Shown here piece after piece: positions 1,345 to 61,843 of a stretch of DNA of 64,000 bases. Where the stretch lies: the NCBI GenBank assembly GCA_028279755.1, contig JANQNB010000018.1, forward strand, positions 134,611 to 198,610, given 5' to 3'. Source of the DNA: Candidatus Nanoarchaeia archaeon. Lineage in GTDB: Archaea; Nanobdellota; Nanobdellia; Woesearchaeales; UBA525. Under the pieces are notes generated by a model. The model was not told the DNA's origin and did no database searches. It saw nothing but the letters and a program-made list of their open reading frames with translations. The translations under genes and the position numbers were made by a program. Every line of letters begins with the position of its first letter. Within the stretch, counting starts at the first letter, position 1.

Positions 1345-1460
1345 ACGACACCCACCTCTTCTTGAGTAGGCTGCCCGTCTGAGAATATATAAAGGTTTCG
1401 TTGGGAAAATGGTGTTTTCCATTAAAAAGACTTAAAAAACTCAAGAATAAGTGGCTACTC

Positions 1461-2078
1461 ATGCCTCGCGCCCAAGCAGCTCTGGAATTTCTCGTCACCT
1501 ATGGCTGGGCGATCCTGGTCGTGCTGGTGATGATCGGCGCTCTGGCGTATTTCGGCGTGATTGATGCGAAGCGATTTATCCCCCAGAAATGCATGGTGAG
1601 TCAAGGTTTTTCATGCACAGATTACTACTTATCAAAGTGGGATGGTGGAGTCAATCAATGCGAGGTGAGCTTCATCCTCAAGAACAATATGGGCAGGCCT
1701 ATCAGGATCCTGGCGAACAGCACGAACATCACCTGCGACAACTGCGAATACCATCCTGATATTCAATATTGGAGGAATTGCGGGCATTGGCGCTTGCAGG
1801 ACACGACCCTTGTCGCTGTCAATCACGGAAATGATGCTGTTATCGGCACTGATGAGACCTTTATCCTCGAATGCAACTCAGGAGATGTCTATTACATTGA
1901 TTTTGACACTGTGGGTCATAAGGAACGCGTGCGTTTCACTTTTGACTATGCATTGCTCGACAGTAACTTCCCGCACCGGGTCGAGGGCGAGATTCTCGCG
2001 ACAGTCCAGGAACAGAAATGCGGGATGCGCCGGTGTGTCTATCCGCCCGGTGATCCAACCGGGGATACGACATGTTGA
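1461..2078 (+). CDS. Archaeal type IV pilin-like protein with a class III signal peptide and a Cys-rich C-terminal domain.
   Basis: The N-terminus MPRAQAALEFLVTYGWAILVVLVMIGAL matches the PibD/FlaK-type prepilin signal (KR-QA..EFL.TYGWAIL). An ATG at 1461 lies inside the longer ORF 1401..2078. A TATA-like AATATATAAAGG sits upstream. Confidence 0.7.
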   Translation: MPRAQAALEFLVTYGWAILVVLVMIGALAYFGVIDAKRFIPQKCMVSQGFSCTDYYLSKWDGGVNQCEVSFILKNNMGRPIRILANSTNITCDNCEYHPDIQYWRNCGHWRLQDTTLVAVNHGNDAVIGTDETFILECNSGDVYYIDFDTVGHKERVRFTFDYALLDSNFPHRVEGEILATVQEQKCGMRRCVYPPGDPTGDTTC

Positions 2079-2104: not shown

Positions 2105-4144
2105 TTACCCGAGCCAGCTGCCCACAGCGAGGAAGACCGGCACGAAGACAAGCGCGACGATGGTCATGAGCTTGAGCAGGATGTTCAAGCTTGGCCCCGA
2201 CGTGTCCTTGAACGGGTCGCCGACCGTGTCGCCTGTCACGGCTGCTTTGTGCGCTTCGCTGCCCTTGCCGCCGTGCTTGCCAGTCTCGATGTACTTCTTC
2301 GCGTTGTCCCACGCGCCGCCGGCATTGGCCATCATCAGAGCGAGCATCACGCCGCTTGCGAGCGCGCCGGCGAGCATGCCGCCAAGCGCCTGGATGCCGA
2401 GCACGAGGCCGACCACGACTGGTGCGATCACCGCCAGGAGTCCTGGCAGGATCATCTGCTTCAGCGCGCCGGTGGTTGCGATGTCCACGCACTTTGCGTA
2501 GTCAGCTTTGGCTTTGCCTTTCATCAGGCCCTTGATCGTGCGGAACTGTCGTCGCACTTCCTCGATCATGTCAAAGGCTGCGCGGCCCACCGCTTTCATG
2601 CTCATGGCACTGAACAGGAAGGGAAGCATGCCGCCGATGAGGAGTCCGATGATGACGAGCGGTTCGGTCAGGCTGATCATCGTGAGCCCGGCTTGCTGCG
2701 CGAACGCAGTAAAGAGGGCCAAGGCCGTCAGTGCCGCGCTGCCGATAGCAAAACCCTTGCCGATAGCAGCAGTCGTGTTGCCAGCGCTGTCAAGCGCGTC
2801 AGTGCGCTTCCTGATCCGCGGACCAAGCTCTGCCATCTCTGCGATGCCGCCAGCATTGTCTGCCACAGGGCCATACGCGTCCACTGCCAGGCTGATGCCA
2901 AGCGTGCTGAGCATACCAACGGCTGCGATGGCGATGCCGTAGAGGCCGCCAGTATAGTACGCGACGCCGATAGCAGCGACGAGCACGAGGACTGGCCAGC
3001 CAGTGCTGCGCATGCCAACAGCGAGGCCTTCGATGATGTTCGTGGCTGCGCCGGTCAGGCTCGACTTGCTGATCTGCTTGGTCGGGCCGTAGTGATAGCT
3101 TGTGTAATACTCGGTCAGGAGACCGATCACCACGCCTGCGACAAGCCCGGAGAGCATGGCCCAGAACAGCGCGAGGCTGCTGAAATAATAGTTGGCCAGG
3201 AAGTAGGTGCCGATCGCGACCAGCACGCTCGCGACGATCACTCCCGAGTGCAAGGCCCAGTTGATCCGCTTGTCGTTGTTCGTGCGCACGAAGAACGTGC
3301 CGATGACGCTTGCGACAATGCCGAGGCCCGCAATCACGAGCGGGAAGAGGATGCCCTTCATGCCGAACGCGACCACGCCGAGGAGCATGGCGCTGATCAG
3401 ACTGCCCACGTAGCTCTCGAACAGGTCAGCGCCCATGCCTGCAACGTCGCCGACATTGTCGCCGACATTGTCTGCGATCGTCGCCGGATTTCTCGGATCG
3501 TCTTCCGGGATGCCTGCTTCCACCTTGCCCACAAGGTCAGCGCCGACATCAGCAGCTTTCGTGTAGATGCCACCGCCGACACGAGCGAAGAGCGCGATGG
3601 ATGATGCGCCGAAGCTGAAGCCCAGGATGAGTTCCAACGCTGCAGTGTCTGCTTCCACGCCAAAGGCGAGGAAGAGGATAAGCAAGCCGAGAAGGCCGAG
3701 GCCGACGACCGCGAGACCCATCACGCTGCCGCTCTTGAACGCGACGTTGAGCGCGCTGTTCAGATTTTTCCTCGCTGCTTGCGTCGTTCTGACAGCGGCG
3801 TGCGTGGCGATGCGCATGCCGATGTTGCCGGCGATAGCGCTTGCCAAGGCGCCGACGATGAACGCGATCGCCGTGGCTGGGAAGGGCGTGGTCGTGCCCA
3901 GGAAGACCAGGCCGGTTCGCGCGTCGACCGTGAGCCATAAAATAATGGCGACGATCAGCACGAACGCTGAGAGAATGTAGTATTCCCGTCGCAAAAAGGC
4001 CATCGCGCCTTCGCGGATATAGCCTGCGATTTCCTGCATGCGTTCAGTGCCTGCTTTCTGTTTTTTCACGTTGTTCGCCAAGAAGGCGCAATAAATCAGT
4101 CCGAGGACTGCAATCACAATCAAACCGTAGATCGTCAATATCAT
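2105..4144 (-). CDS. hppA: Membrane-bound proton-translocating inorganic pyrophosphatase.
   Basis: 679 aa and polytopic. The signature [35 protein letters not shown] is diagnostic of V-type H+-PPases. Confidence 0.92.
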
Positions 4145-4253
4145 TCAACTCCCTCCGCTATCCCCTAAGGATTCTGGGCACAGCGAGCCGGAGCTCTATA
4201 TAAAGATTACTGTCGCTGAGTGGGGAAGATGATGTTACTGGATGATCCACGCC

Positions 4254-4805
4254 TTACTTGTAGGTTTCAGGGATCTCTTGACAGGCCTTTTCCAGCTGAG
4301 ACACGCGGTCCTGAAGCATGGTTCGAGATTTCTCTAGAGACGCAACAGTCTGCGTATGCGTTCCTTCTATGTCCGAGAAGAGCTGTTTCTCGATGTACGT
4401 TCGAGCGAAAGTAGGAGCCAGATGTTCTATATATGGTCCTGTACTGGTTGTATGGGGTCGGATTGTTATTTTTGTAGTGGCTTGCAATGGTGAGCACAAC
4501 ATGACTTGGCCCACTGCAATCAAATCAAATTCTTGACCATTCTCGGGAAGATAGGAGAATTCAAAAGCATCCACGCCACTGATTTTTGAGTATCGCCCGA
4601 CAATTGTAGCTTCATTATTACTGATCAGATCTTTATCTCTAAGATCGCTGGCATCAATGGAGGAGTCTTGTTCCCTGCCCAGTTCCACGACTGTATCGTA
4701 GATGTCTTTGGCACTATTGAGTTGAGCAATCCAGTCTGTTGCGAACTCTTTCGCCAATTTTTCCGCTTTGTTTAGGACTTGTTCGCGAATCATGAGCTCA
4801 CCCAC
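4254..4805 (-). CDS. Hypothetical protein, last gene of a three-gene low-GC operon.
   Basis: 183-aa ORF with no recognisable motif. Its start overlaps the stop of the upstream gene by 8 nt. Local GC is about 45% against about 60% for the rest of the window. Confidence 0.55.
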   Translation of the reverse strand: MGELMIREQVLNKAEKLAKEFATDWIAQLNSAKDIYDTVVELGREQDSSIDASDLRDKDLISNNEATIVGRYSKISGVDAFEFSYLPENGQEFDLIAVGQVMLCSPLQATTKITIRPHTTSTGPYIEHLAPTFARTYIEKQLFSDIEGTHTQTVASLEKSRTMLQDRVSQLEKACQEIPETYK

Positions 4806-5334
4806 CGACTTTGTCCAGGGTCTGTTGGCACAGGGACCTGTATGCCAGCTGGTCTATGCTTCCCCTGGGTGTTGTTCTGCTCATTGACGTAACCTGCACG
4901 CTCGCTTCTTCAATGGCTCCACAAGCGCTATGTGTACTGACCGTCACTTTATGCTGCAGAGCATCACCCAACCATTCACCGTCTACTGGATCTTCTCCGA
5001 AGTAATGTTCGATAGTGTATCCATTATATTTCTCTTGGAGTATGATTCCGAATTGTTCTTCGACTTCCGGATCTCCAGGAATGCGGTACTTGTCGGGAAA
5101 TGCTTTCTCGCTCACTTTCACCGCTATGTAGCTCTCCCGCGCCCTTGTGTGCTCTTCAGGAACTCTGAAGCCGCCGTAGTATACGTTGCCTTGTGCAAGA
5201 TCCCACTTGACTATTCTGTTATCCCAATTCTTCCCTTTTTTCAGCGAACCAATGATACGTTCTGTGAGGTTCTTCATTGTTGTACCACCATCCTCGCCTT
5301 CTCTTGTGTATCCGAACATCTCAGCACCTACCAT
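4798..5334 (-). CDS. Hypothetical protein, middle gene of the three-gene low-GC operon.
   Basis: 178-aa ORF that overlaps both neighbours by 7–8 nt, consistent with translational coupling. No recognisable domain. Confidence 0.55.
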   Translation of the reverse strand: MVGAEMFGYTREGEDGGTTMKNLTERIIGSLKKGKNWDNRIVKWDLAQGNVYYGGFRVPEEHTRARESYIAVKVSEKAFPDKYRIPGDPEVEEQFGIILQEKYNGYTIEHYFGEDPVDGEWLGDALQHKVTVSTHSACGAIEEASVQVTSMSRTTPRGSIDQLAYRSLCQQTLDKVGG

Positions 5335-5819
5335 CGTAATGTCGCTAACTGTACTGTATGTAAGACATCACGGCATAGACTGGAGTAGTTTCTCTGATCC
5401 CTTGGATTGTCAAGTCCTGTTCTGAAATCACTGGATTTGATACCTCGTCCATAGGATGGGCCTTCCAGAGAAGGATTTGCACCCTCATCATACCCATTTT
5501 CAATTTTACTCTTGTACATGACCTTTCCTTTCCATTCTCCATCAATTTTGAGTTCAAAGCATCTTTTCGTGCGTTCTAAGGAGTCTGTTTTTTCCTTTGT
5601 AATAATCTCAAGCATCGGTTTCCCGACAAGATTTGGGTGTTGTGAGGTTGAGCCGGCTGATCCGTCCTCTTTATAGTGAACACTTATCGAACCCTGGTCT
5701 GATGGTACTTCGAGCAGATAACCAAATCCTTGTTCTGGATGATCTTCATCAAGAGCTGTTTTTTCTCCATATTGGATAGCCAAGTCAACAAGGCGTTCTA
5801 CGAGGTTTTTTGTTCCCAT
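5328..5819 (-). CDS. Hypothetical protein, first gene of the three-gene low-GC operon.
   Basis: 163-aa ORF. The AT-rich divergent promoter region 5820..5944 is shared with the Lrp-family regulator. Confidence 0.55.
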   Translation of the reverse strand: MGTKNLVERLVDLAIQYGEKTALDEDHPEQGFGYLLEVPSDQGSISVHYKEDGSAGSTSQHPNLVGKPMLEIITKEKTDSLERTKRCFELKIDGEWKGKVMYKSKIENGYDEGANPSLEGPSYGRGIKSSDFRTGLDNPRDQRNYSSLCRDVLHTVQLATLRW

Positions 5820-5944
5820 GGTTCTGTCCCCATTCTTTGCTACTTTATAGTGGTCATAATATGTTTTGATGTATAATAATATATATTGTCAATTTTTTTG
5901 TCAAATATCGGAATATTTATATAATTCAAGAAAAATCTGAACCT

Positions 5945-6898
5945 ATGCGGCTTGATCTCAAAGACAAAAAGCTCCTCTTTGAACTCAGCAAGAACTCACG
6001 ACTGCCCTACACGAAACTAGGGCGCCTCACCAGAATGTCGAAACAAGTCGTGGAATACCGCATCAAACGGCTTCAGGAAGCGGGGATCATCCTCGGCTAC
6101 CTGACAGAGCTCAATTTCTCAGCCTATGGCCAACCAATAGTAGGCAGGGTCTACATGCAACTCCATAAGCTCGGTAGCAGGCGGGAACAACGCATCACAG
6201 CGCACCTGCACAACTTCGAGGAATGGAGCTTCTACGAGCGTTTAGACGGCCGATACGATCTCAACATCGCGATCATGGCAAGCACGCTGCAGGAATTCCA
6301 ACGAAAAGCCGACATGATTACGAAAGCCTTTCGCTCTGAAATCAGGGAAGAACATATCGTCATCCGCTACCAAGCATATCAATATGACTTCAAAGTCTTG
6401 CTGAACAGCAAGCAATCAGGAGAGTCCGCCATCGTCGATGAACGGCCTCCTGTGGCCTTGGATGAACTCGATGAAGCCATCCTGAAACAGCTCGTCAACA
6501 ATGCACGCATGGAAACCACGGAAATTGCGCATCGTCTCGATAAACCGTATGCAACTGTGCATGGGAGAATCCAACGTCTGATCTCCAAGGAAGTCATCAA
6601 ACGTTTCACAGTAGCGCTTGACTGGGAAAAAATGGGCTATCTCACAACGAGATTCCTCATCAACTTCGTGCATGTAGAGAATCATGAAGAGTTCCGGCAT
6701 TTCTGCCGAAATCATCCTAACATCACCTATCTTGTTTTTGCATTAGGAGCATGGAATGCAGAAATATATACCTGCTTCCCTTCAGTCAAAGCCTATCGCG
6801 CGTTTCGAGCAGAACTCAGGAACAAGTTCGGAAAACACATACGAAACATCGAGATGGTGGATGCGCTTTCCGCCCATCCTGCACAAGAGTTTTCGTGA
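5945..6898 (+). CDS. Tandem-duplicated Lrp/AsnC-family transcriptional regulator with two HTH+RAM modules.
   Basis: Two AsnC-type HTH segments are present: LDLKDKKLLFELSKNSRLPYTKLGRLTRMSKQVVEYRIKRLQEAGII and LDELDEAILKQLVNNARMETTEIAHRLDKPYATVHGRIQRLISKEVI. Each is followed by a RAM-like domain. Confidence 0.8.
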   Translation: MRLDLKDKKLLFELSKNSRLPYTKLGRLTRMSKQVVEYRIKRLQEAGIILGYLTELNFSAYGQPIVGRVYMQLHKLGSRREQRITAHLHNFEEWSFYERLDGRYDLNIAIMASTLQEFQRKADMITKAFRSEIREEHIVIRYQAYQYDFKVLLNSKQSGESAIVDERPPVALDELDEAILKQLVNNARMETTEIAHRLDKPYATVHGRIQRLISKEVIKRFTVALDWEKMGYLTTRFLINFVHVENHEEFRHFCRNHPNITYLVFALGAWNAEIYTCFPSVKAYRAFRAELRNKFGKHIRNIEMVDALSAHPAQEFS

Positions 6899-6950
6899 AT
6901 GCCTCGCAAGGACACAGTTCTTGTGACCACATTCTTTTCATAAAGTATAT

Positions 6951-8621
6951 ATGTGTGTCCACATTCCTCGTCCTATGCCTTTCATCGAGAAACAAGTCAA
7001 GGGCAAGAAGGAGTATTACTATCTCACAAAGACCTCGAGAACAGGTGCAGGCTTCAAGAAAGAGCGAGTACGCTTGTCAGGCCCGAACCCTTCGAAAGCA
7101 GAACTGCGCGAGAAAAGCCAGCAATTGCGGAAACCGTTTTCTGTCCAACGGATCAGTGATTCCCGGATTCCGAACAAGAAGATGATCTGGGAGCGACCCT
7201 GCTATCCATTCTTGGTCTGGTGCGCTGCCGAGGCGCTTGTCGCACCCCAGAAAGAAGAGTTTGGCCATAGCTGGGGCCACACGCAAGGCTTTTTCCAGAA
7301 CGGTATGGTCAAATATGTCTGGGATCGAAAACACATGATCAAGTCCGGCATCCACATCATCAACAATCTGCTCGAGGAGGAGTATTTCAAGACCAAGAAG
7401 AAGCGACACGATGATGCATTGCAGAGATTGAAGCGAACCTACAAGCGATTCCCAGAACTCGCGCGTCTGAGCGACAGGGAACTCTGCAAAGAACAGCTGG
7501 CATTCTACGCAACCTTCATGGAGTGGTGGGGCAAAAGCCAGGTTGCCGAATGCATCGCTCTTGGTGCTGAATACCTTCTCGGCGCAGAAGTCGATGAGAA
7601 TACGGTGAGCATCATCACAACGCCTTCCGAGAAGTCATACTCCACAATAGAAGAGGAAGAGTTGCTCGCAATAGCTGATGAGATCATGAAAGATCAACGA
7701 CTGCGATCGATGTTCGAGAAAGAGACCGTTACTCTCAAGAGCTTTCCAGCACTGCGCACACGACTGGAAAGACATGTTCAGGACTATTACTGGCTGCAAA
7801 ACAATTACGCAACAATCACCTATTGTGATATACAGTACTTCATCCAGGAGATCAAGAAGATCCTGGCACAGAAGAAAGCGCCCAGGAAAATCATCCAGGA
7901 CATGAACTCCCGGTTGGACCGGATCAGAAAAGAGAAAAAAGAAATGATTGCAAAGCTCGACCTTCCGGACGAGTATCTCGGCTTGCTGAGACTGGTCGAC
8001 TACTACAGTGCTCTCCAAGACATGAGAAAAGCGATCTCTATAGAGGGGAATTACTATACATATCGGTTCATTGAAGAACTTTCGAGACGTACCGGAATCA
8101 ACAGCAATCTGCTCCTGTTCATCTCACCCTTCGAATACGCTGACATACTGAAGGGAAGCTTTGATGTCTCAGAGCTGACAAGAAGAAAGACCGGATGCGT
8201 CATGATCATCACTGAGCGATTCGTGCACATGCATACTGGAGAGAAATATGAGAACGCGTACAAGAAAATACGCGGTCCAGAGACGAGTGAGATCACAGAA
8301 TTCGAAGGAAAACGAGCAGAAGGAGGCACAGTCACCGGCAGAGCCAAAATCGTCCTCGACCCCAGGAACGCGCCAGCATTCAAAGACGGAGACATCCTGG
8401 TCACGACAATGACCAGCCCTGATTTCCTCACCTTCATGAAAAAATCAAAAGCCATCATCACCGACGAAGGCGGCATCACCTGCCACGCAGCGATCATCTC
8501 ACGCGAACTCGGCATTCCGTGCATTATCGGAACCAAGATCGCAACTGAAGTTCTGAAAGATAACGATTTCATTGAAGTCAACGCGAACCACGGCCTCGTG
8601 CGCATTGTGTCGAGAGCATAA
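6951..8621 (+). CDS. PEP-utilizing enzyme (His swivel domain) family protein, paralog 1. The N-terminal ~400 aa is uncharacterised.
   Basis: The C-terminus reads GRAKIVLDPRNAPAFKDGDILVTTMTSPDFLTFMKKSKAIITDEGGITCHAAIISRELGIPCIIGT, which is the mobile PEP-utilizers domain. The N-terminal region shares YY..R..YF-type motifs with the 40822..42282 paralog. The true start may be internal, for example M at 6975. Confidence 0.75.
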   Translation: MCVHIPRPMPFIEKQVKGKKEYYYLTKTSRTGAGFKKERVRLSGPNPSKAELREKSQQLRKPFSVQRISDSRIPNKKMIWERPCYPFLVWCAAEALVAPQKEEFGHSWGHTQGFFQNGMVKYVWDRKHMIKSGIHIINNLLEEEYFKTKKKRHDDALQRLKRTYKRFPELARLSDRELCKEQLAFYATFMEWWGKSQVAECIALGAEYLLGAEVDENTVSIITTPSEKSYSTIEEEELLAIADEIMKDQRLRSMFEKETVTLKSFPALRTRLERHVQDYYWLQNNYATITYCDIQYFIQEIKKILAQKKAPRKIIQDMNSRLDRIRKEKKEMIAKLDLPDEYLGLLRLVDYYSALQDMRKAISIEGNYYTYRFIEELSRRTGINSNLLLFISPFEYADILKGSFDVSELTRRKTGCVMIITERFVHMHTGEKYENAYKKIRGPETSEITEFEGKRAEGGTVTGRAKIVLDPRNAPAFKDGDILVTTMTSPDFLTFMKKSKAIITDEGGITCHAAIISRELGIPCIIGTKIATEVLKDNDFIEVNANHGLVRIVSRA

Positions 8622-8655
8622 CGTTTAAAAACAGCTTCTTGTTCGCGTAGCGCAG

Positions 8656-8752
8656 GCCCCTGTAGTGTAGTCCGGCCAATCATACCGCCCTCTCGAGGTC
8701 GCTTCGGCGCCAGAGCAAGGCGGTGACTCGGGTTCGAATCCCGGCGGGGGCA
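8656..8752 (+). tRNA. tRNA-Glu (anticodon CUC) with a ~22-nt intron at 37/38.
   Basis: The acceptor strands GCCCCTG and CGGGGGC pair (one G-U) and are followed by discriminator A. The anticodon stem is CCGCC/GGCGG with loop CU-CUC-G, interrupted by AGGTCGCTTCGGCGCCAGAGCA. The T arm is TCGGG-TTCGAAT-CCCGG. A TATA box TTTAAAAA lies about 25 nt upstream. No CCA is encoded. Confidence 0.75.
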
Positions 8753-8840: not shown

Positions 8841-9206
8841 CTATTTATCGCATTTATCGCAGATGCCTTTCACTTCAAGCTGGAAGCTTGTGATGCTTCC
8901 TGGTATCTTGTTCTTCAAGAAATCGATATTATCGATGTCGAAGTGGATAACTTTTCCTGTCTTCTCACATTCGAAATGGCAGTGGCTTCGCTTGCCTTTT
9001 GAGTAGACGCTCTTTCTGTTGCAGGTATATGTATGTAACTCTCCATTCTTCACCGCCTCTGCAAGGTAGCGGTAGATAGTCGCCATCCCGATGTTTTGGA
9101 GTGTACTTCGTGCATGGAGGTCTGCCGCGCTGAAGAAGGAGGTAGTCTTCTCCACTTCTTGTCGAATCAGCTCTTTCTGTTTTGTCGCTCTGCTAGCCCG
9201 CACCAT
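8841..9206 (-). CDS. Fur-family metalloregulator (Fur/Zur/PerR-like).
   Basis: Translation MVRASRATKQKELIRQEVEKTT...HCHFECEKTGKVIHFDIDNIDFLKNKIPGSITSFQLEVKGICDKCDK shows the Fur fold with a C-terminal Cys/His metal site. The ATG at 9206 is preferred over the TTG at 9224. Confidence 0.8.
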   Translation of the reverse strand: MVRASRATKQKELIRQEVEKTTSFFSAADLHARSTLQNIGMATIYRYLAEAVKNGELHTYTCNRKSVYSKGKRSHCHFECEKTGKVIHFDIDNIDFLKNKIPGSITSFQLEVKGICDKCDK

Positions 9207-9260
9207 AATGAGAACGAGAATCAATAAGATATATAAATATTATGGAAAGCCGGAAGATTT
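9207..9260. promoter_or_regulatory. Divergent promoter region between the Fur-family gene and the CobW-family gene, containing a Fur-box-like operator and a TATA element.
   Basis: AATGAGAACGAGAATCAATAAGATATATAAAT shares AATGAGAA..GAGAATCAATAAGAT[A/T]TATAA with the element at 10619..10652. It resembles the Fur consensus GATAATGATAATCATTATC. Confidence 0.55.
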
Positions 9261-9267
9261 GATACTC

Positions 9268-10572
9268 ATGAAAGGATTAACATTACTAGGAGGCGCTCTC
9301 GGTGCAGGAAAAACAACATTCCTTACCAACGTGCTTCTTGCAGATGGATTTACACCAAAAAGAGAAGGCATAATCGTCATGGACGCTGCCGGCAAGATTG
9401 ATTATTCCATACTAGAAAACTTGGCAGAGAGCAAGGGTGTGAGAATCGCCGACGCAACATCAGGATGTACTGTGTGCGATGGGCCGGAAAGCGCTATCAG
9501 GGAACTCGCAACAATGCAGGATCTTGACCACGTCGTCATTGAACTCTCAGGTCAGATGCCACTCACCACCATGATGAGAGGTCTCGCCTCAGAAGGAGTT
9601 GTAGATCCACAAACTTTCTACCTCCTCGACCCGAGGAACTTCACACTTGTGCAGGCGGCAGACGAAGTACCCTATGCGCACGTCATCGGGATCACAAAGA
9701 GCGATGTAACTCCCGATGTTGTTCGTCACGCACCAAATGCGAGAATAGTGAGAATCCATGAGCAAGGAGTATATACTTTGGATAAACTCTTTGAAGGAGT
9801 CGACACAGCACCTTTTGCAGTTGCGTCACACCATCACCACCATCACGGATCGAAGGGGATGGTCACAAAATGGTTTGGCAAAGTGCTGAACCCTTACCAT
9901 ACGGCTGATCAAATTGAAGCAATCATCAAATCCTTGGCTGGAAGATACGATCGCATCAAAGGCCACGTTGCACTCGATGCAGAGAGGATCCTCAGGCTCC
10001 ATACCGTATTCGGCGAATGCACATTCAAGGTTGAGCAGGACGCAAGTGCTGGCAATGGGACATTGCTCTTCGTAAACCAATCAGAGCGCTACTTCCCAGA
10101 AGCCCAGGCAGTAGAGGATGCACACCCGTTTATTGATAGTCCTGACATCGTTCCTGTTCTGAGACGAGGAAGTACACGTGAGAGCTTCGTCAATTATGTC
10201 GGCATGGCACTTGCAGCTCAGCAGTATGATGATGCAATGGGTGCAGCAGCGCAACTCCGCTACGAGCAGGAGGATGAATCCCTGGTCGTGGAAACACTCC
10301 CAGCATACGCCGAAGGCAAGCTGAAACTTATCCAAAGTGGTCAGCACTCCCGGTCTCAACGACTCCTCGAAGGAATGAGTGCCTTATGGTTCTTACAGGA
10401 GAACCCTGGCGTCGTCGAACCCACGATTCAGCATACTTTGGAGAGAATCTATTGTCGGGACTTCGCAGCAATGACTGGAGCCGACTGGAAAGAGATCGAG
10501 CGTGGGTCGGATCCGGAAGAGACAAGATGGTACATCAAGGATGTCCATCAGAAGATTCCGACAAGGTCGTAA
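9268..10572 (+). CDS. COG0523 G3E-family GTPase (CobW/YciC/ZigA-like putative zinc metallochaperone) with a His-rich linker.
   Basis: The sequence MKGLTLLGGALGAGKTTFLTNVLL carries the P-loop, GCTVCDG carries the CxCC motif, and a run of six His (HHHHHH) is present. The ATG at 9268 is preferred over the longer ORF from 9091. Confidence 0.85.
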   Translation: MKGLTLLGGALGAGKTTFLTNVLLADGFTPKREGIIVMDAAGKIDYSILENLAESKGVRIADATSGCTVCDGPESAIRELATMQDLDHVVIELSGQMPLTTMMRGLASEGVVDPQTFYLLDPRNFTLVQAADEVPYAHVIGITKSDVTPDVVRHAPNARIVRIHEQGVYTLDKLFEGVDTAPFAVASHHHHHHGSKGMVTKWFGKVLNPYHTADQIEAIIKSLAGRYDRIKGHVALDAERILRLHTVFGECTFKVEQDASAGNGTLLFVNQSERYFPEAQAVEDAHPFIDSPDIVPVLRRGSTRESFVNYVGMALAAQQYDDAMGAAAQLRYEQEDESLVVETLPAYAEGKLKLIQSGQHSRSQRLLEGMSALWFLQENPGVVEPTIQHTLERIYCRDFAAMTGADWKEIERGSDPEETRWYIKDVHQKIPTRS

Positions 10573-10618: not shown

Positions 10619-10652
10619 CTTATTGATAATGAGAATCAATAAGATTTATAAC
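10619..10652. promoter_or_regulatory. Fur-box-like palindrome overlapping the TATA box of the CooC-like operon.
   Basis: TCTTATTGATAATGAGAATCAATAAGATTTATAAC contains the inverted repeat CTTATTGA/TCAATAAG. GATAATGAGAATCAATAAG matches the Fur-box consensus at 15 of 19 positions, and TTTATAAC follows directly. A second partial copy ATTGATTATTGAGAA lies at 10690..10704. Confidence 0.6.
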
Positions 10653-10728
10653 ATACACATCATTTGAGGCGAGGGATAGAGATGATGCTATTGATTATTG
10701 AGAAATATACAAAGAAGAGGTGGATTCG

Positions 10729-11673
10729 ATGAGAGTCGTCTTTCTCGGCAAAGGCGGGAGCGGGAAGACCTCACTCTCAGGCGCATTTATCGAGTTTGCC
10801 ACAAAAAAAGGGCCTGTGCTCGCAATCGACGCTGATGTGAATCGTCACCTCCCCTCATTCCTCGAGATCGAGAGAAAGAGAGATGTCGGAGATGCCTATG
10901 AAGAGGTTGCCTCCTATCTCTACGGGAAACGAGAGGATATCGAACAAAAACATATGGTCGCAACAACACCCCCCTCACGGAACTCACACTTCATTCGAGT
11001 GGAGAAGGATGATCCCTTCCTCAATCGCTTCTGCTCCAAGGGAGAAGGAACGCATCTCCTCGTCGTCGGCAACTACCATGAGAAGGATGTTGGGCACACG
11101 TGCTATCATGGGAAATTGAATGTTCTGGAGATGATCTATCACCACCTGCTCGACACTGAGGATGAGATAGTAGTTGCAGACGCAACAGCAGGAATCGACA
11201 ATATCGGGACATCGCTCTACTTCTGCTACGATCTCTCAGTTTTCGTCGTCGAGCCGACTATAAGGAGCATCGAGGTCTGCAAGGAGTATCTCGCTCTCGC
11301 AGAGCAGAACGAAGTGGCAGTGGCCATTGTTGGAAACAAGATTGAGACGCCTGAAGACGAGCAGTTCATCGAACGAGAACTCGAGGGCGCAAGGATTCTC
11401 TGCCACATTCCCTATACACAGGAGTTGAAAGCGTACGAACAGGGCGATCTCTCTGCAAAGGAGCGCTTTTCGTCGATGGTCGTACCACAGATGGAGATCA
11501 TCCGCAACGCACTTGCAGAAGAGAAAAGAGATTGGAACGCCTATTATGAGCGGCTCCTCAAGACCCATAAAGTGAACAGCATCGAATGGTGGGACTCCTA
11601 TTACGGCGAACCTATCTCCGAGCAGCAGGATCCGACATTCACCTATCAAGAAGTAATGGAGGGAAAGAAATGA
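10729..11673 (+). CDS. CooC/MinD/ParA-type P-loop ATPase (deviant Walker A).
   Basis: MRVVFLGKGGSGKTSLSGAFIEFAT carries a KGGxGKT-type deviant Walker A. The stop overlaps the next gene's start (ATGA at 11670). Confidence 0.7.
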   Translation: MRVVFLGKGGSGKTSLSGAFIEFATKKGPVLAIDADVNRHLPSFLEIERKRDVGDAYEEVASYLYGKREDIEQKHMVATTPPSRNSHFIRVEKDDPFLNRFCSKGEGTHLLVVGNYHEKDVGHTCYHGKLNVLEMIYHHLLDTEDEIVVADATAGIDNIGTSLYFCYDLSVFVVEPTIRSIEVCKEYLALAEQNEVAVAIVGNKIETPEDEQFIERELEGARILCHIPYTQELKAYEQGDLSAKERFSSMVVPQMEIIRNALAEEKRDWNAYYERLLKTHKVNSIEWWDSYYGEPISEQQDPTFTYQEVMEGKK

Positions 11674-18450: not shown

Positions 18451-18528
18451 GCAGCCGTGGTGCAGTAGTTCAGCGTCGCTACCCTGGGAAGCAGGGGTTT
18501 CGGCGCTTCGCACCTCAAGCCCCTTAAC
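18451..18528 (+). ncRNA. tRNA-Gly(CCC) 5' leader element: a tRNA-like RNA that begins with a 16-nt copy of the tRNA 5' end.
   Basis: GCAGCCGTGGTGCAGT at 18451 is identical to the tRNA 5' end at 18529. The core CAGCGTCGCTACCCTGGGAAGCAGGGGTTTC is identical to that of the element at 56798..56881, and both end TCAAGCCCCTTAA. A TATA AATATAAAG lies about 25 nt upstream. Confidence 0.6.
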
Positions 18529-18600
18529 GCAGCCGTGGTGCAGTGGTTAACATTCAAGGTTCCCAACCTTGCGACCCGGGTTCGACTCCCGGCGGCTGCA
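18529..18600 (+). tRNA. tRNA-Gly (anticodon CCC).
   Basis: The acceptor is GCAGCCG/CGGCTGC plus A. The anticodon arm is CAAGG-TTCCCAA-CCTTG and the T arm is CCGGG-TTCGACT-CCCGG. Confidence 0.85.
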
Positions 18601-20746: not shown

Positions 20747-22381
20747 ATGAAACGATTACTCTGGTGCCTCGCACTCCTGCTGTGCCCGCTTGTCGTGAGT
20801 GCGGCATTCGACAGCAGCTCGTGGCAATACATGCAAGAGATCAGCGTCGATGCTGACGAACCGGTGAAGCTCGTCCTCGATCCGAGCCTGCTGGCCAATG
20901 CGCAGCTCGACGGGCACGACCTCCGCGTGACAGAAGACGCGGTCGAGATCCCGTACAAGCTCTCGTTGGAAGGCAGTGCAGAACAGCAACGAACCATTGC
21001 GAGCATGACTGCCTCGTCGACGCGGCCGGACTTCCGTTCAGTCTCGTATGCGCCGGTCAATATGATCGATGGTGACGCATCCAATAGCGAGGGCGCGTAT
21101 TTCCAGATCGACGGCACAGTCGATACGGAAGTCTCGTGGATCGTCGCAGACCTCAGCTCTTCTGTGTTGAGTACAAAAGCCCGGTTCACGCTTGGGAGCG
21201 CGCGCTTTACGCATGTCCAAGTCCAAGGCAGCAACGACCTCGCGTCGTGGACCTTGCTGAAGCAGAAGACGAAAAGCGGCAGCCAGGTGAGCTACGCGCC
21301 GAGCAGCTTCCGCTACGTTCGCTTCACGCTCTGGCACAAGGGCGATCTCGTGATCAACGAGCTGACGATGTATGGCGAGAGCAGCGGCTGGCTCCTGTTC
21401 AACGCGCAGACCGGCAAGACCTACATGATCTATTACGGCAATGCGCAAGCAGGCGTGCCTGACTATGATCTTGAAGGATTGTATACTGTCGCGACCACGC
21501 CCTTCGTGTACACGCTCGGCGAGTGGGTGAACCCGTTGTTTGTCGGCGACGCTGATGAAGACGGCGTCGGCGTGGGCGACAATTGTCCGTCAGTCGCCAA
21601 TCCTTCGCAGCTTGACAGCGATAATGATGATCTTGGCGATGACTGCGACAATTGCCCTGGCGTGAGCAACCCTGGCCAAGGGGACCGTGATCACGACGGT
21701 GTGGGCGATGCGTGCGACAACTGCGCAGCGATGTACAATCCCAACCAGTATGACGACAACTTCAATGATATCGGCTGGGTATGCGACGACGAGGATCGCG
21801 ATGGCGTGGTGAACAGCGAAGACAATTGCGTGCCTGGCGCAAACCGTGATCAGCAGGACGTCGACCGTGACGGGGTTGGCGATGCGTGCGAGGACGACGA
21901 CGGCGACGGGGCTGCAAACTATATGGATAATTGCCCAGAGCTTGCGAACGCTGACCAGGCTGACAGCGAAACAGAGAATGGCAGGCTGGTTGGCGATGGT
22001 GTTGGCGATGCGTGCGACAATTGCGTGAACGTCAGGAATGCGGATCAGCGCGATACTGATGAAGATGGTGTCGGAGATGCCTGCGAGGACGACGACCAGG
22101 ACGACGTGCGCAATGATGCTGATAACTGCCGGCTTGTCGCGAATGCTGACCAGGTCGACTGGGACAGCGACGGCTTGGGCGATGCCTGCGACAATTGCCC
22201 GGAACATAAGAACCCGAATCAGCGCGATGTCGACAGCGACGGGCTTGGCGATGCCTGCGACGAGACTGAGAGCAGGCTGCTCGAGCAGAAGTGGATCGTC
22301 TGGAGCATCATCATCCTCGCGATACTCGTGCTCGGCTTCTTCGCCTACCGGATGTACCAGACGCCGGGAGGGAAGGAATGA
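20747..22381 (+). CDS. Secreted, membrane-anchored surface protein with an N-terminal discoidin-like domain and about 10 thrombospondin type-3 (Ca-binding) repeats.
   Basis: There is a signal peptide [19 protein letters not shown]. Repeats of the form [24 protein letters not shown] recur, and a C-terminal TM helix is present. The DNA shows matching internal repeats. Confidence 0.75.
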
Positions 22382-23691: not shown

Positions 23692-25077
23692 TTAGAACTT
23701 CATCTTCTTGCGGGACATGCGTCCGCCCATCTGACCCTTCTGGATCTTCTGCATCATTTTTTCCATTCCCTTCTCAGACTGCGCGCCCTTGAACATCTTC
23801 ACCATCTTCTTGCTCTGCTTGTACTGCTTGAGCAAGCCGCGCAATTCCTGGATGGACTGGCCGCTGCCTTTGGCAATGCGCTCTAAGCGGCCGCCGGAAA
23901 CAGTGCTCGGATCCTCTAGTTCTTCCTTGGTCATGGAATCCATGAGGAAACGCCACTTCTTCAGCTTGTCTTCCTGCACATCGAGCATCTCTTTCGGGAT
24001 GTCCATCTGGCCCATGCCAGGGATCATCTTCATCACCTTATTCAAGGGCCCCATCTTCTTCATCGCAGCCATCTGCTCATAGAGGTCCAGCAGGTTGAAC
24101 TCGCCTTTCAGGAACTTTTTACCTAAATCTTCAGCACGATCCTCGTCGATCGCATCCTTCGCTTTCTCGAGGAGCGCTTCAAGATCGCCCAGTCCCAATA
24201 AGCGGCCGACAAAGCCCTGCGGCTTGAACTCTTCGAACTCCTCGACCTTCTCGCCGGTGCCGATGAAACGCACTGGTGCGTCAGTGACTGCGCATGCTGT
24301 CAACGCGCCACCGCCTTTCGCAGTGCCGTCGAGCTTGGTGATGATCACGCCCGAAACCTTGACAGTGTCGTGGAACGCCTGCGCTTGCTTCTGCGCCGCT
24401 TGCCCGACATCGGCAGCCATCACGAGCAATGCCTCGTCGGGTTTGACGAGCGTGTTGATGCCATTGAGTTCCTTGATCAGGTCGTCGCTCAACGCGTCAC
24501 GGCCAGCAGTGTCGACAATGATCAGGTCGTATTGCTTGAGCTCTGGCTGGACCTTTTTCCAGATCTTCTCAGGATCCTTCTCGCCCTTGATGCCATACAC
24601 CGGGACGCCGACCTGTTTGCCGAGCTGCACGAGCTGGTCGTACGCAGCTGGTCGCCAGGTATCGGTCTGGATCAACGCGACTTTCAGCCCGCGCTTCTTG
24701 TAGTAGAGTCCGAGCTTGCCCGCAGTCGTCGTCTTTCCATTGCCGAACAGGCCGACCAGCATGATCGTGAACGGCTTCTTCTTCGTCTCTGTTGTGAACT
24801 GTTCAGCCTCGCCGCCTAAGAATTTCACGAGTTCCTCATACACGATGTTGACGATGAACTCCTTCTTCTGTAACGCAGAGGGCGCTTTTTCCGACAGCGC
24901 GCGCTCCTTGATCTGATTGCTGACTTCGAAGACGAGCTTGACATTCACGTCTGCCTGCAACAACGAGCGCTGTATCTCTTTCACGAGCTCGTTGATGGCT
25001 TTCTCATCGATGAAGGCTTTGCCTGTCAGGGTGCGCAGGCTGGCTTTCAAGGCATCTCCTAGTTTGTCGAGGACCAT
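23692..25077 (-). CDS. srp54: Signal recognition particle protein SRP54.
   Basis: 461 aa. The GTPase domain motifs IMLVGLFGNGKTTTAGKLG and DLIIVDTAGR are present, and the C-terminal M domain is Met-rich. Confidence 0.92.
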   Translation of the reverse strand: MVLDKLGDALKASLRTLTGKAFIDEKAINELVKEIQRSLLQADVNVKLVFEVSNQIKERALSEKAPSALQKKEFIVNIVYEELVKFLGGEAEQFTTETKKKPFTIMLVGLFGNGKTTTAGKLGLYYKKRGLKVALIQTDTWRPAAYDQLVQLGKQVGVPVYGIKGEKDPEKIWKKVQPELKQYDLIIVDTAGRDALSDDLIKELNGINTLVKPDEALLVMAADVGQAAQKQAQAFHDTVKVSGVIITKLDGTAKGGGALTACAVTDAPVRFIGTGEKVEEFEEFKPQGFVGRLLGLGDLEALLEKAKDAIDEDRAEDLGKKFLKGEFNLLDLYEQMAAMKKMGPLNKVMKMIPGMGQMDIPKEMLDVQEDKLKKWRFLMDSMTKEELEDPSTVSGGRLERIAKGSGQSIQELRGLLKQYKQSKKMVKMFKGAQSEKGMEKMMQKIQKGQMGGRMSRKKMKF

Positions 25078-28112: not shown

Positions 28113-29036
28113 TCAGCACACTTGGCGCTTCTGACCGTGTTCTTTAACACAAGCAAATGCTTCTCCTAAGAATTTCGGTGTAGTTTCTATTATGATTGGA
28201 ACGTCTCGCCCGATAGCGTACGGGAAAACCGCGTCAAACTGCTGACTGTTCAGCGTGCTCATAGATCTTGGGTGCTTTCGAAGATCATAGAGGTCAATAC
28301 CTCTTGTATGGATAACTTCTGGCTCCAGTTTAAGAAAGTCTGCGACAGCTCTCACTTGCAACCCCTCCTTAAATCTTGTCTCGTGTTGTACAAGATCAAG
28401 CGGCTCTGCAATTCCTTCTGCATTAAGTATGAAAATATTGTGAGGGGGGAGCTGGAAGTCTCTGTCTGGGGGATCATACATGTGTTCGGGGTAGCAGTTT
28501 TGTGTTAAGCCAACATTAGCCAGATCCAGGCAGAAACCAAAACCTGCTGCTTTCATACTCTGGTAGAAAGGGCTTAGTGGTGTTGCGAAGATTGATTCCT
28601 GATTTCCTGACCAGCGAGGCATGTTCTCCACGAGCACTCTCACAGGACCTTTCCGCTCTGCTATCCACTTTGTCAGTGCATCAAATTGCTCTTCGATTCT
28701 CATCGAGAGTTGATAATCTCGCCATTCTTCTCTCGTGAGGAAGCCAGGATGAAGAATGAGGTGGGATGCTCTGAGGTATGTCGCACTCTCAAACGCCTCC
28801 TCCAATATCGTTCTGTTCTTCTCAGTCGCTCCTCGAGGATAATTGAATCCGTGCGCTTCATGTGCTGCATGGACTATAACAGCCAGACCAGAATCCTTTA
28901 CTGCTTCCAAATCATGCTTCTCTGTGCCTGGTTCGATATAGACTTGTATTTGAGTGAGGCCCATTTCAACAAATCGGCAGAGTTTCTCTTCTTTGTCCGG
29001 TTCTCGTGAGCTGATTGTTGTCCCTATTTTGATCAT
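28113..29036 (-). CDS. Sugar phosphate isomerase/epimerase-like TIM-barrel protein (xylose isomerase-like).
   Basis: 307 aa. It resembles the fold family of 16603..17373. The region is lower in GC. Confidence 0.55.
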   Translation of the reverse strand: MIKIGTTISSREPDKEEKLCRFVEMGLTQIQVYIEPGTEKHDLEAVKDSGLAVIVHAAHEAHGFNYPRGATEKNRTILEEAFESATYLRASHLILHPGFLTREEWRDYQLSMRIEEQFDALTKWIAERKGPVRVLVENMPRWSGNQESIFATPLSPFYQSMKAAGFGFCLDLANVGLTQNCYPEHMYDPPDRDFQLPPHNIFILNAEGIAEPLDLVQHETRFKEGLQVRAVADFLKLEPEVIHTRGIDLYDLRKHPRSMSTLNSQQFDAVFPYAIGRDVPIIIETTPKFLGEAFACVKEHGQKRQVC

Positions 29037-29076
29037 GCTGTAGGGAATCAGGGAGAAACATATAAGGATTCCTAAT

Positions 29077-32000
29077 CTAGATCTTCAAGCTCGTGACTTT
29101 CGACACGCCGTGCTCGTTCATGCTCACGCCGAAGAGGTTGTCGGCTTCGCTGATGACTGAGTCGTTGTGGCTGATGATGATGTATTGCGCGTGGTCGCAA
29201 TACTTGCGGATGAGGCGCGCGAGCTTCTCGCTGTTATGCTTGTCCAATGCAGCGTCGACCTCGTCCATGATGTAGAAGCTTGCCGGTTCGTGCTCCTGCA
29301 CTGCGAAGAGGAAGGCGAGCGCTGTCAGGGTCTTCTCGCCGCCGCTGAGTGAGCGGATGTCGAGGAATTTCTTTCCGGTGAGCTTCACCTTGATCGTCAT
29401 GCCGGCCTGGAACGGGTCGTTGTGATCCTCCAGGTCGAGGTAGGCGTCGCCTTTCGCGCTGAGCTGGCCGAAGAAATGCTTGAAGTTCTCGTTCACGACC
29501 TCGAAGGTCTTCATGAAGAGCTCTTTCTTCTTCGCGTCGATCTCGTTGATCATGACGAGCACGTCTTCCCTTTCCGAGCCGAGCTTGTCCTTCTTCTCGA
29601 TCAGGTTCTTGTACTCGTGCTCGACCTGTTCGTAGATCTCCAGGGCTTTCATGTTGACTGCGCCGATGTTCTCGACAAGGCGTTCGAACTGGCGGACTTC
29701 CAGGAGAATATCCTCTTCTGATTTCTCTGCCTTCTTGTACGGCTCCACGCCTTCGTACTGGCGCAGCTCTTCCTCGAGTCCGGCGAGCTCTGCTTTCAGG
29801 CGCGCCACTTCGAGCGAGCTCCCGGTGTTCTTGTGCTCGATGTCGCGGGATTTCTCATCCATGCTCTTGATGTCCGCTTCCCGCTTGGTGATCTCGTCGC
29901 TGAGCTTGGTGCGTTTCGTGAACAATTCCTTAAACTGGCTGAAGAACTTCTCTTCCTGCTTCTCCTTTTCCTTGAGCGCTTTCTCCTGCTCCTTGATCTT
30001 CGCTGTGAGCGCGGCTTTCTCCTTCTTGAAGGATTCACCCTCCTTGTCGTGCTGCTTGAGGATGTCCCGCACCTTCTCGGTTTCCGGGCCGAGGATGTTC
30101 TTGACCTCGCTCTCGCTCGTGCGCAGCTCGCCATTGAGTTCAGCAATCTCCTGCTGGAGCTCTTGCTTCTTCTCCTCGAAGCTGTTCAGTTCTGCGAGCA
30201 CGGTCGGGCTTCGCAATGCCGAAATCTTGTCGCGGAGCTTCTGCTTCTCGATCTTCAGCGTGCCGAGTCCGCTCGTCTTGTCAGTGATATCGTTCACCAC
30301 CTCATCGAGCTCCTTGTCGACTTTGACGAGCTCCTGCTGCAGGCGCTTCTTCTCGTCCTGCGACAAGCCGATGTCGTCGCTGTCAAGATGCAGGCTCTTC
30401 TCGCTCTTGATGATCTCGCCTTCGAGGTTGGCTTTCAGTTCACGCAATCTCGTGATCAGCTCTTCGTTGTCTGCGCGCTTCTTCTCGAGCTTGCTGACAA
30501 TGCCTTCAGTGTCTGCCACCTCTGCCTCGAGCTTTTCGATCTTCTCGCTCGTCTCCTTCTGCTTGAAGCCGATGCCACGGCGCTCTTTGGAACGGAAACC
30601 ACCGCTCATCGCGCCGCTTGTCTCGAGCAGGTCGCCGTTGAGGGTCACCATCCGAGCCTTGCCCACACCCAAGCGGCGCGCCGCCTCGATGTTGCTCATC
30701 ACGACCGTGCTGCCGAACACGTACGAGAACACCTTTGCGTATTTCGCGTCGTGATCCACGAGCGTGGAGGCGAGGCCGATGACATCGCCGCCTTTCGCTA
30801 CCTTCGCAGGCTCTGGCGAGCGCAGCTTGTTGAGCGGGAGGAAGGTCGCGACTCCTAATTTATTCTGCCGCAGGTACTTGATGCATTTCGCCGCCACTTC
30901 GTCGGTGTCGACCACGATGCTGTTGACTCTCGGGCCAGCGGCGATTTCCAAAGCAAGAGCGTATTCTTCCTTCACCTTGCCGAGGCCTGAGACTGTGCCG
31001 TGGATGCCCTTGATTGTGCCCTTGGCCTTGAGATCGAGGATCGTGGTGATGGCAGTGCCGCCGGCGATGCGCTCCATGATGCTGCTCTGCTGCGCTTCGA
31101 GCTTGGCGAGTTCCTCTTTTCTACTCAGGAGTTTTGCTCTCGCTGTTTGCAGCTGCGCATGGAGACTGCTGTCCTCGGTGACTGCCGTGTTGAGCTCTTT
31201 TGTCGTCTTCTTGAACTGCTCTTTCTTACTCTTCAAGGCGTCGAGCTCTTTCTTGTGCTCTGCAGCGATGCCGGTCACGCGCGAAATTTTCTCGTCGATC
31301 TGCTCGAGCTGGATCTCGGCCTTGTCTTTTTCCCGAAGCAGTTCCTGCTGCTGCTCGCGCAGCTTCGCGATCTCTTCCTGCAGCTTCTCTGCCTGCTTGT
31401 CGATCTCTTCCACGCGCGAGTCGATCGCTGCCGCGTCTTCGACATGGTGCTTTTTCCTGAACTCGTTGATGCGCGTGTCGAGCTTTGCGATCGATTCTTC
31501 CCGTGTCTTGATGCGCTTCTCGACATCCTTGCGCTCGTCCTCGATAAGCTTGATCTTGTCGAACAATTCCTTGTTCGTGCGTATGAGCTCGTCCTTCCGG
31601 TCCTCGAGCTTTGCCAATTCCTGTTCGAGGCTTTCGACGCGCTGTTTGTTCACTGCGAACTCGACCTTTGCTGCTTCGATCTCTTTATGGAGCTTGACCT
31701 GTTCCTTCTCGCCGCGCTTCTCGACTTCCTGGTTGATTGCTTCGACGCCTTTCTTCCGCTCCGCGATCTCAGCCTCGAGCTTTGTGCGCCGTTCCTCGAG
31801 CTTTGTCAATTCTGCCTGGTGCTTGCCCACCTGCTGGTCGAAGCCTGCCAGCTCTTTCTCCCGCTTCTTCTTCTTGATCGTCAATAAGGTGCATTTGTTG
31901 CGCTTGATCTTCTCGTCGAGTTCCTTGAATTTGAGCGCTTGGTTTCGTTCTTTTTTCAGCTCGCGCAGGTAGGTCTTTCGTTCTGCCAGGACGATATCCG

Positions 32001-56669: not shown

Positions 56670-56787
56670 TGGGGCTACGAGGATTTGAACCCCGGTTGCC
56701 AGGTGTTTTGATCTCGGATCAAAACCCGCGAGGACTTTGTCCGAGCATGCCCAAACCTGGAGTGATACCAAGCTACACTATAGCCCC
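56670..56787 (-). tRNA. tRNA-Pro (anticodon UGG) with a ~45-nt intron at 37/38.
   Basis: In tRNA sense the acceptor is GGGGCTA/TAGCCCC plus A. The anticodon stem is CCAGG/CCTGG with loop UU-UGG-G then an intron. The T arm is CGGGG-TTCAAAT-CCTCG. Confidence 0.7.
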
Positions 56788-57322: not shown

Positions 57323-57502
57323 TACTCATCCCCCCGTGGCAACGGGGGGTGTCGCATGAATTCTTAAGCGTTTCGACAGGAAGCTTTTTAAACGAATCAG
57401 GGTTCGCAAAGCGTACCATTTTACCTGGCAGCCAGAGCTGCGGTCCGCGTATCTAAGCCAAGGGGGCTGGACGACCCCGTCATGTTCATAGGTGATACTC
57501 AC

Positions 57503-58258: not shown

Positions 58259-58306
58259 GGAAAACCTTTTTATTCTCTCCTTCCGACCATGGTGAGAGGT
58301 GAGGAC

Positions 58307-59590: not shown

Positions 59591-59594
59591 TCGC

Positions 59595-60386: not shown

Positions 60387-60434
60387 GCAAAACATTTTTA
60401 AATCCCTTTCCCTATTTTTCTTATTGCGACAAAG

Positions 60435-60935: not shown

Positions 60936-60969
60936 ATCTGGATTCGTCCCTTTTCATGGGGGTGAGTCA

Positions 60970-61452: not shown

Positions 61453-61484
61453 AACTTATTAATCGCTTCTTTATCCTTACCCAC

Positions 61485-61742: not shown

Positions 61743-61843
61743 AACATCTGTTTTCTCGGGAAATACGTCGTAAAAAAGTAAACTTTAAATAAGGTTATTG
61801 CCGGGATACGAACTTAGGTAATGATTTATTTGAGGTGAACACC

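Follow-up and report, generated by a model that had tools for sequence, protein, structure and literature searches.

A stretch of low GC content lies near the start of the 64,000 nucleotides (nt) analysed here, positions 134,611 to 198,610 of contig JANQNB010000018.1 from a Candidatus Nanoarchaeia archaeon; this whole stretch is called the window below. Three consecutive open reading frames (ORFs) on the minus strand, with the spacer upstream of them, cover positions 4254-5944; they are named P1, P2 and P3 in the order of reading. Across the spacer lies a divergent gene for a tandem regulator of the Lrp/AsnC type (Table 1). The reading that accounts best for the observations is that P1-P3 form a genuine three-gene operon, limited to one Woesearchaeota lineage, that specifies three soluble, acidic proteins of orphan families, is probably controlled by the Lrp protein and is accessory; to this reading as a whole we give a probability of roughly 0.55.

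The three reading frames and their products

GC content over 4254-5944 is 44.2%, against a mean of 53.6% for the window, and no 1.7-kilobase (kb) stretch of the 64 kb has less (z = -3.2; as low a value is reached by 0.16% of sliding windows). An earlier note on this DNA, made from the sequence alone, had reported a fall to about 45% over some 1.7 kb, and the measurement bears it out. The left edge of the trough is abrupt, GC standing at 61% in the adjoining H+-pyrophosphatase (H+-PPase) gene. On the right the trough rises gradually, with 45-51% GC persisting to about 16 kb. GC content at third codon positions (GC3) is 0.35, 0.50 and 0.46 in P1, P2 and P3, against 0.55-0.80 in most genes of the window; the value for P1 is the lowest among 49 long ORFs. 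The codon log-likelihood of the trio lies 2.5-3.8 standard deviations under that of the reference genes. The comparison of codon usage and base composition that the note had proposed therefore finds the trio atypical on each count: GC, GC3 and codon log-likelihood. An independent Logan assembly of SRR20820740 is base-for-base identical across 2297-8682; the junctions on either side of the trio are thus no artefacts of assembly.

Taken as longest ORFs, the three have the lengths given in the note (163, 178 and 183 amino acids [aa]) and overlap, as it said, by 7 nt (P1 and P2) and 8 nt (P2 and P3). The first overlap stands for the longest form of P2; the second probably does not. A Shine-Dalgarno site, GGTGGGTGA, sits 4 nt upstream of an ATG at 4793 within the P3 frame, and the public gene call for P3, of 179 aa, starts at the same place. 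This ATG is most likely the true start, rather than the GTG at 4805, so that a 4-nt gap to P2 replaces the overlap. For P2 itself there are three start candidates, at 5334, 5319 (M6) and 5277 (M20); the similarity to P1 described below begins at the last of them. Opposite P2, an antisense ORF of 152 aa occupies 4930-5388 on the plus strand; its codon score is -0.13, against 0.00 in the P2 frame, and it is most likely a shadow ORF.

That the trio consists of real protein-coding genes is very probable. When the region was shuffled 5000 times, no shuffle had three stop-free stretches on one strand that each reached 150 aa. The frequency of G at codon position 1 is 0.32-0.39 in the annotated frames of all three ORFs, against 0.13-0.25 in the other frames (for P1, 0.34 against 0.15-0.20); purine periodicity likewise singles out the annotated frame in each, and that frame is also the best of six by a codon log-likelihood trained on the host.

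Judged by sequence, P1 and P2 are old, divergent, collinear tandem paralogues. BLASTP aligns them with E = 0.001, and they are 33% identical end to end, counted from M20 of P2. The motifs common to both are KNLxER near the N terminus, DGEWxG in the centre and YxSLCxxxLxxV near the C terminus. The Smith-Waterman score has z = 3.9, with 6 of 2000 shuffles scoring equally well; among 12,882 six-frame segments, drawn from the window and all fetched loci, each of the two is the other's best non-self match. Two frames that are both intact at about 30% identity bespeak long upkeep as protein-coding sequence. Similarity of P3 to P1 or P2 was also sought, and not even a remote relationship was found; further relatives of the pair were absent from the window and 121 fetched loci, searched with phmmer and with a hidden Markov model (HMM) of P1 and P2.

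To the databases, all three proteins are strangers. No family in Pfam, NCBIfam or PADLOC matches P1, P2 or P3 at E ≤ 1, and PHROGs gives no significant match, the sole one at E ≤ 1 being P1 to phrog_11651 (E = 0.13); the absence of recognisable domains remarked on in the note holds throughout. P2 and P3 find only themselves among 5.8 billion proteins, as does P1 in a full HMMER pass through 1.84 billion cluster-representative proteins, and each of the three is a singleton cluster. A sequence search of the PDB, with a profile of P1 and P2 and with P3, returned nothing beyond a chance match to a GB1 domain (E = 0.08). Searches by tblastn of 50,697 phage records and 72,556 plasmid records found no match to the trio, scans of IMG/VR with P3 and the P1/P2 profile found no relative, and Rfam at a permissive threshold found no RNA element in 4100-6000. 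The proposal in the note that the trio be looked for in other genomes has thus brought only self matches in the protein collections searched. By these comparisons, P1-P3 belong to no described family.

The proteins are small (18-20 kDa each), hydrophilic and acidic (isoelectric point [pI] 4.9-5.8), with no hydrophobic or membrane segment. P1 is soluble, with pI 5.6. At low confidence, P1 and P2 are predicted to have N- and C-terminal helices flanking a beta-rich core. For P3 (pI 4.85) the prediction, likewise of low confidence, suggests a long helix at the N terminus, four central strands and then long helices at the C terminus, of which the last shows, as read from the sequence, the a/d pattern of heptads (VASLEKSRTMLQDRVSQLEKACQEI). 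A Foldseek comparison of a P2 model with the PDB gave noise (best E = 0.89, template modelling score < 0.3), and the rows for actin-capping protein in that list were discarded as not significant.

The divergent regulator and the spacer

The earlier note had the trio share an AT-rich promoter region with a duplicated Lrp/AsnC gene, and so it does: the spacer is 25.6% GC, and the divergent product carries two helix-turn-helix (HTH) domains of AsnC type. PF13404 (HTH_AsnC-type, E = 6.3e-20) and PF13412 (HTH_24, E = 2e-21) each match two stretches, residues 3-49 and about 172-220. For the effector domain PF01037 (AsnC_trans_reg/RAM) there is one weak match, in the second module at residues 242-292, whose score of 18.7 bits (E = 0.0017) falls short of the cut-off of 25. 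The first module lacks a direct match of its own, though an alignment of 140 residues links it to the second; the halves of the protein align with each other at E = 7e-4. The NCBIfam models AsnC, LysM, LrpA and Lrp match as well, under their equivalog cut-offs. Assignment as a siroheme decarboxylase (AhbA/B, NirDL-like) was considered and rejected: the scores are 20-29 bits against cut-offs of 125-140, far under those of generic Lrp.

The nearest relatives of this regulator are five tandem Lrp proteins of 319-374 aa, with 24-30% identity; a query of GTDB representatives with the Lrp protein gave no match. The relatives form a small family, strongly diverged, whose members lie on a few DPANN-like contigs (Ga0265292_1000428, ERZ27280317 k141_205507, JAIYRI010000065.1).

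Two promoter-like elements face away from each other in the spacer. In archaea the TATA box usually lies about 26 nt from the transcription start; here the boxes are 26-28 nt from the start codons of P1 and of the Lrp gene, so that both transcripts would be leaderless or nearly so. The H+-PPase gene downstream of the trio has a TTTATATA box of its own (4204-4197) and a GGAGGG site, which makes the trio a separate unit. Between the two boxes in the spacer stands a candidate operator for the tandem Lrp protein, TTGTCAA-N5-TTGTCAA, made up of two near-palindromic TTGNCAA heptamers 12 bp apart, or one helical turn. Nowhere else in the window does the element recur exactly; read on its own reverse strand, it matches with two mismatches. 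The TTG...CAA-type repeats resemble the box of Ss-LrpB, TTGYAW-N3-WTRCAA, a likeness that serves as a lead, not as a test.

The layout, in which an HTH_AsnC-type regulator and a small operon diverge from an AT-rich spacer, is a familiar one. Regulators of the Lrp/AsnC family with divergent operons include AsnC (asnA), BkdR (bkd), archaeal LysM and Ss-LrpB, and they usually tie their divergent neighbours to a small-molecule signal. The present case differs from these classic systems in that the regulator joins two modules covalently in tandem, with closest relatives only 24-30% identical, and in that the presumed targets are not genes of amino-acid metabolism. From the arrangement of the genes and the letters of the spacer, the odds that the trio is under Lrp control appear about even.

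Origin and role of the cassette

The operon might work as follows. Transcription would begin about 26-28 nt downstream of the TATA-like box of the trio and yield a leaderless mRNA; P2 and P3 would be translated from internal Shine-Dalgarno sites a few nt from the preceding stop codon; and the three proteins would in this way be made together. They would probably form one hetero-oligomer, in which P1 and P2 supply a pseudo-symmetric pair and P3, ending in a short coiled-coil-like helix, an oligomerising scaffold. The tandem Lrp protein would bind TTGNCAA-N5-TTGNCAA between the TATA boxes, and its binding would tie expression of the trio, and of Lrp itself, to a small-molecule (metabolite) signal. 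The cassette would be accessory, having come by lateral transfer from an archaeal mobile element not yet sampled, or else being fast-evolving and expressed only weakly. The balance tilts towards co-expression and joint action of the three. A bolder version, in which a P1-P2 heterodimer on a coiled-coil P3 would be a new lineage-specific complex, switched by Lrp and serving DPANN episymbiosis or an undescribed form of archaeal immunity, is a long shot.

Several observations pull the other way. The trio has no homologue outside its own genome in the databases searched. Structure prediction, which the earlier note had recommended, was run with AlphaFold2 on P2 and P3 and gave unusable models and no fold match: the mean predicted local distance difference test score is 44 for P3 alone and 40 for P2 with P1 as alignment, values obtained with no alignment depth, and with them neither a fold nor the proposed complex is backed by structure. 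The candidate operator is a motif seen once. The five relatives of the regulator lie in unrelated neighbourhoods (ribosomal L1/L10, Pcc1/prefoldin, toxin-antitoxin genes) that hold no trio-like genes, so comparison lends no support to the pairing of regulator and trio. The P1 frame is only marginally ahead of frame +1 by the host codon model (-0.174 against -0.205). The neighbours scanned include no integrase or transposase and no viral or defence gene, and no direct repeat brackets 4145-5944 or 4145-8752. Lastly, and bearing on lateral origin in particular, the GC-normalised trinucleotide relative-abundance distance is unremarkable at the trio (z = 1.16, rank 19 of 147 windows).

The earlier note had taken the locus for a horizontally acquired cassette of unknown function, possibly concerned with defence, toxicity or stress. 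A compact cassette of unknown function it certainly looks to be, with proteins devoid of known domains, the lowest GC of the window, atypical codons and a divergent Lrp/AsnC gene. Horizontal acquisition fares less evenly. Low GC, low GC3 and deviant codon usage form a local trough of the kind seen in horizontally acquired islets; such islets differ in carrying features looked for here in vain, namely an integrase or transposase, direct (att) repeats, insertion at a tRNA end and a foreign oligonucleotide signature. There is no tRNA fragment or tRNA-end insertion at the islet; the nearest tRNA gene (tRNA-Glu, 8656-8752) is 2.8 kb off, beyond two genes. The ordinary trinucleotide signature, together with the lack of mobility genes and att repeats, weakens this part of the account, and we put the chance that the trio was laterally acquired a little short of even. 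Synteny adds nothing on either side: searched through the H+-PPase, metagenomes gave only relatives of at most 62% identity, and the loci retrieved with the SRP54 query do not extend to the trio region.

A different history is that the three genes are Woesearchaeal genes, vertically inherited, and are fast-evolving and weakly expressed, rather than a horizontal cassette. This differs from the preferred account in origin only: low GC3 would reflect weak codon selection, and orphan status the thin sampling of the lineage. Within the window GC3 does track conservation, standing at 0.76-0.80 in SRP54, SMC and H+-PPase, so low GC3 may simply mark genes that are weakly expressed and evolve fast; several other genes of the window are low in GC3 and codon score too, such as the CobW-like gene (log-likelihood 0.04) and 28113-29036 (GC3 0.44). 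The unexceptional trinucleotide signature and the want of an integrase, att repeat or mobile-element gene count in favour of vertical descent. Sampling is indeed sparse. SRP54 (23692-25077) matches metagenome-assembled genomes of Woesearchaeota/Nanoarchaeia at up to 81-86% identity, which places the genome in Woesearchaeota (DPANN); the genome itself is absent among the GTDB species representatives, and the nearest relative of the neighbouring Lrp protein, almost an orphan in its turn, is only 30% identical, so that the host lineage must be counted as thinly sampled. Lineage-specific hypothetical families abound in DPANN genomes (PMC8204110); with so few relatives sequenced, orphan genes are far less surprising here than they would be in a well-sampled clade. 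Less easily squared with vertical descent are the position of the trio at the lowest GC of the window, the sharpness of its left boundary and the GC3 of P1, the lowest of the long ORFs. Nor does this history sit well with the existence of relatives as close as those revealed by SRP54, given that no homologue of the trio turned up in the large protein collections (P2 and P3 were compared with 5.8 billion proteins, P1 with 1.84 billion representatives). On these grounds it seems unlikely, while still deserving a hearing.

A second alternative takes up the suggestion of defence: the trio would be a novel anti-virus or toxin-antitoxin-type module under the adjacent regulator. Defence and toxin-antitoxin loci are often small, coupled, orphan, low-GC cassettes beside a transcription factor. 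The trio answers to that description and has no housekeeping annotation; three short coupled genes near a regulator recall tripartite toxin-antitoxin systems and small defence cassettes in particular. It differs from those in having no PADLOC, Pfam or NCBIfam match (PADLOC families at E ≤ 1 number 0 for each of the three proteins, and no toxin or antitoxin domain known to Pfam or NCBIfam is present) and in layout, since three proteins of 160-180 aa, two of them paralogous, would be unusual for a toxin-antitoxin system. Nothing in them looks like a nuclease, ATPase, protease or membrane feature. The surroundings speak against a defence island or prophage as well: no defence gene lies within about 15 kb, no integrase was found among the neighbours scanned, those neighbours are ordinary, and PHROGs, phage, plasmid and IMG/VR searches and the search for att-like repeats all came back empty. 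The trio thus belongs to no known defence, toxin-antitoxin or mobile-element family, and every feature of such families that was looked for is missing. The suggestion of defence, toxin or prophage thus finds no support, and a novel module of this sort has a slim chance.

The slimmest chance goes to the ORFs being non-functional, either chance ORFs or the frameshifted wreck of one longer gene: the lack of any homologue in protein searches, the low AlphaFold2 confidence, codon usage that is poor by the host model (with the P1 frame barely distinguished) and overlaps of 7 and 8 nt that could in principle be frameshift junctions are outweighed by the shuffles, by the enrichment of G at position 1 in all three frames, by the Shine-Dalgarno site in front of P3, by the alignment of P1 and P2 as complete units from N-terminal to C-terminal helix, and by the failure of local matches that fragments of a known gene should still give. 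The earlier note had held that ORFs with no homologues anywhere and no purifying selection would prove spurious; outside homologues are indeed lacking in the collections searched, but the paralogy of P1 and P2 and the frame periodicity argue against that conclusion.

The preferred reading, a lineage-limited orphan operon, has its closest counterpart in the ORFan clusters of DPANN and other prokaryotic genomes. Like the trio, these have no homologues, encode short soluble proteins, lie below the average of the genome in GC and GC3, use atypical codons and are tightly packed. The trio differs in holding an ancient internal duplication (P1/P2), which argues against a very recent de novo or junk set of ORFs, and in having a regulator that looks dedicated to it. 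The locus is genuine yet ordinary for a DPANN genome, one more uncharacterised lineage-specific orphan operon. If its products are expressed and form a complex, two new protein families (P1/P2 and P3) would join the DPANN-specific proteins of unknown function, families in which the basis of the symbiotic lifestyles of DPANN archaea is suspected to lie; if the regulatory part is true, one regulator, one operator and one operon would offer a simple test case for tandem Lrp proteins, which have been little studied. For now, the locus is worth recording; it will be no surprise to the specialist and opens no long-standing question.

Neighbouring genes and other features of the window

Genes within about 15 kb of the trio are for phosphoenolpyruvate (PEP) synthase, a pilin-like protein, H+-PPase, a PEP-utilizer protein, tRNA-Glu and Fur, followed by a CobW-like GTPase, a CbiA-like protein, a decarboxylase, a PALP-rhodanese protein, a DHH protein and an apurinic/apyrimidinic (AP) endonuclease.

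Table 1. Positions of the trio, its spacer elements and selected neighbouring genes (numbering of the window)
Feature	Coordinates	Strand	Description
P1	5328..5819	-	first operon gene; 163 aa, ORF call
P2	4798..5334	-	second operon gene; 178 aa from ATG at 5334, overlapping the P1 stop
P3	4254..4793	-	third operon gene; 179 aa from ATG at 4793; longest ORF 183 aa from GTG at 4805
Divergent promoter spacer	5820..5944	.	125 bp, 25.6% GC
TATA-like box of trio, ACTATAAAG	5843..5851	-	centre 28 nt upstream of P1 ATG; read from sequence
Candidate operator, TTGTCAA-N5-TTGTCAA	5886..5904	.	between the two TATA boxes; putative site for tandem Lrp
TATA box of Lrp gene, TTTATATA	5916..5923	+	centre about 26 nt upstream of ATG at 5945; palindrome
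Tandem Lrp/AsnC-type protein	5945..6898	+	317 aa, basic, pI 9.4; two modules, each of an HTH and a putative effector domain
PEP synthase	1 to about 1310	-	PPDK_N plus PEP-utilizers; runs off window start
Pilin-like ORF	1401-2078	+	225 aa; archaeal type IV pilin-like (class III) signal motif QAALEFLVTYGWAILVVL; no Pfam match
H+-pyrophosphatase	2105-4144	-	PF03030, E = 6.5e-283; 61% GC, GC3 0.78
fur	8841-9224	-	Fur-family gene
CobW-like gene	about 9247 to 10572		encodes HHHHHH run
CbiA/ParA-like gene	10720-11673		

The best metagenome relatives of the H+-PPase are only 50-62% identical to it, human-gut contigs among them, and the gene itself may have a history of transfer between domains. The pilin-like ORF sits between it and the PEP synthase gene. 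Two paralogues elsewhere on the plus strand, at 6951-8621 and 40822-42282 (556 and 486 aa), have only the C-terminal mobile His domain of the PEP-utilizers; the N-terminal 400 aa or so of both are without a Pfam match. DNA for the mobile domain of the PEP synthase and 8434-8549 form an inverted repeat of 116 nt (74%).

By GC-normalised trinucleotide composition, the strongest outliers of the window are 57400-63750 and 28900-32300, with z up to 3.4 at 61626-63325. The second block is the SMC gene, while several ORFs of the first are unannotated and one gene in it (58289-59590) is for an AAA/STAND-like ATPase.

A 31-nt element, TAATGAGAAYGAGAATCAATAAGATWTATAA, occurs twice beside the Fur-family gene, at 9206-9236 and 10621-10651, the copies being 87% identical. 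Each copy leads into a TATA-like box upstream of a gene for a metal-chaperone-type NTPase, and the second, GATAATGAGAATCA, resembles the classical Fur/Zur box. Together with the fur, CobW-like and CbiA/ParA-like genes, the two elements probably constitute a small Zur/Fur regulon.

Of the four tRNA genes in the window, two have room for an intron, which was the first pointer to the window being archaeal: the 97-nt gene for tRNA-Glu(CTC) at 8656-8752, and one of 118 nt at 56670-56787 on the minus strand, which was found by Rfam and missed by ARAGORN. The 5' end of tRNA-Gly(CCC) (gene at 18529-18600) recurs 78 nt upstream, where 18449-18470 copies 18527-18548 over 22 nt (95%); no tRNA model matches the copy, which may be the remnant of a partial tRNA duplication. 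Finally, 20747-22381 on the plus strand encodes 544 aa with thrombospondin type 3 repeats and an F5/8 type C (discoidin) domain; its product is probably a surface adhesin, of possible relevance to the episymbiotic lifestyle of DPANN archaea.

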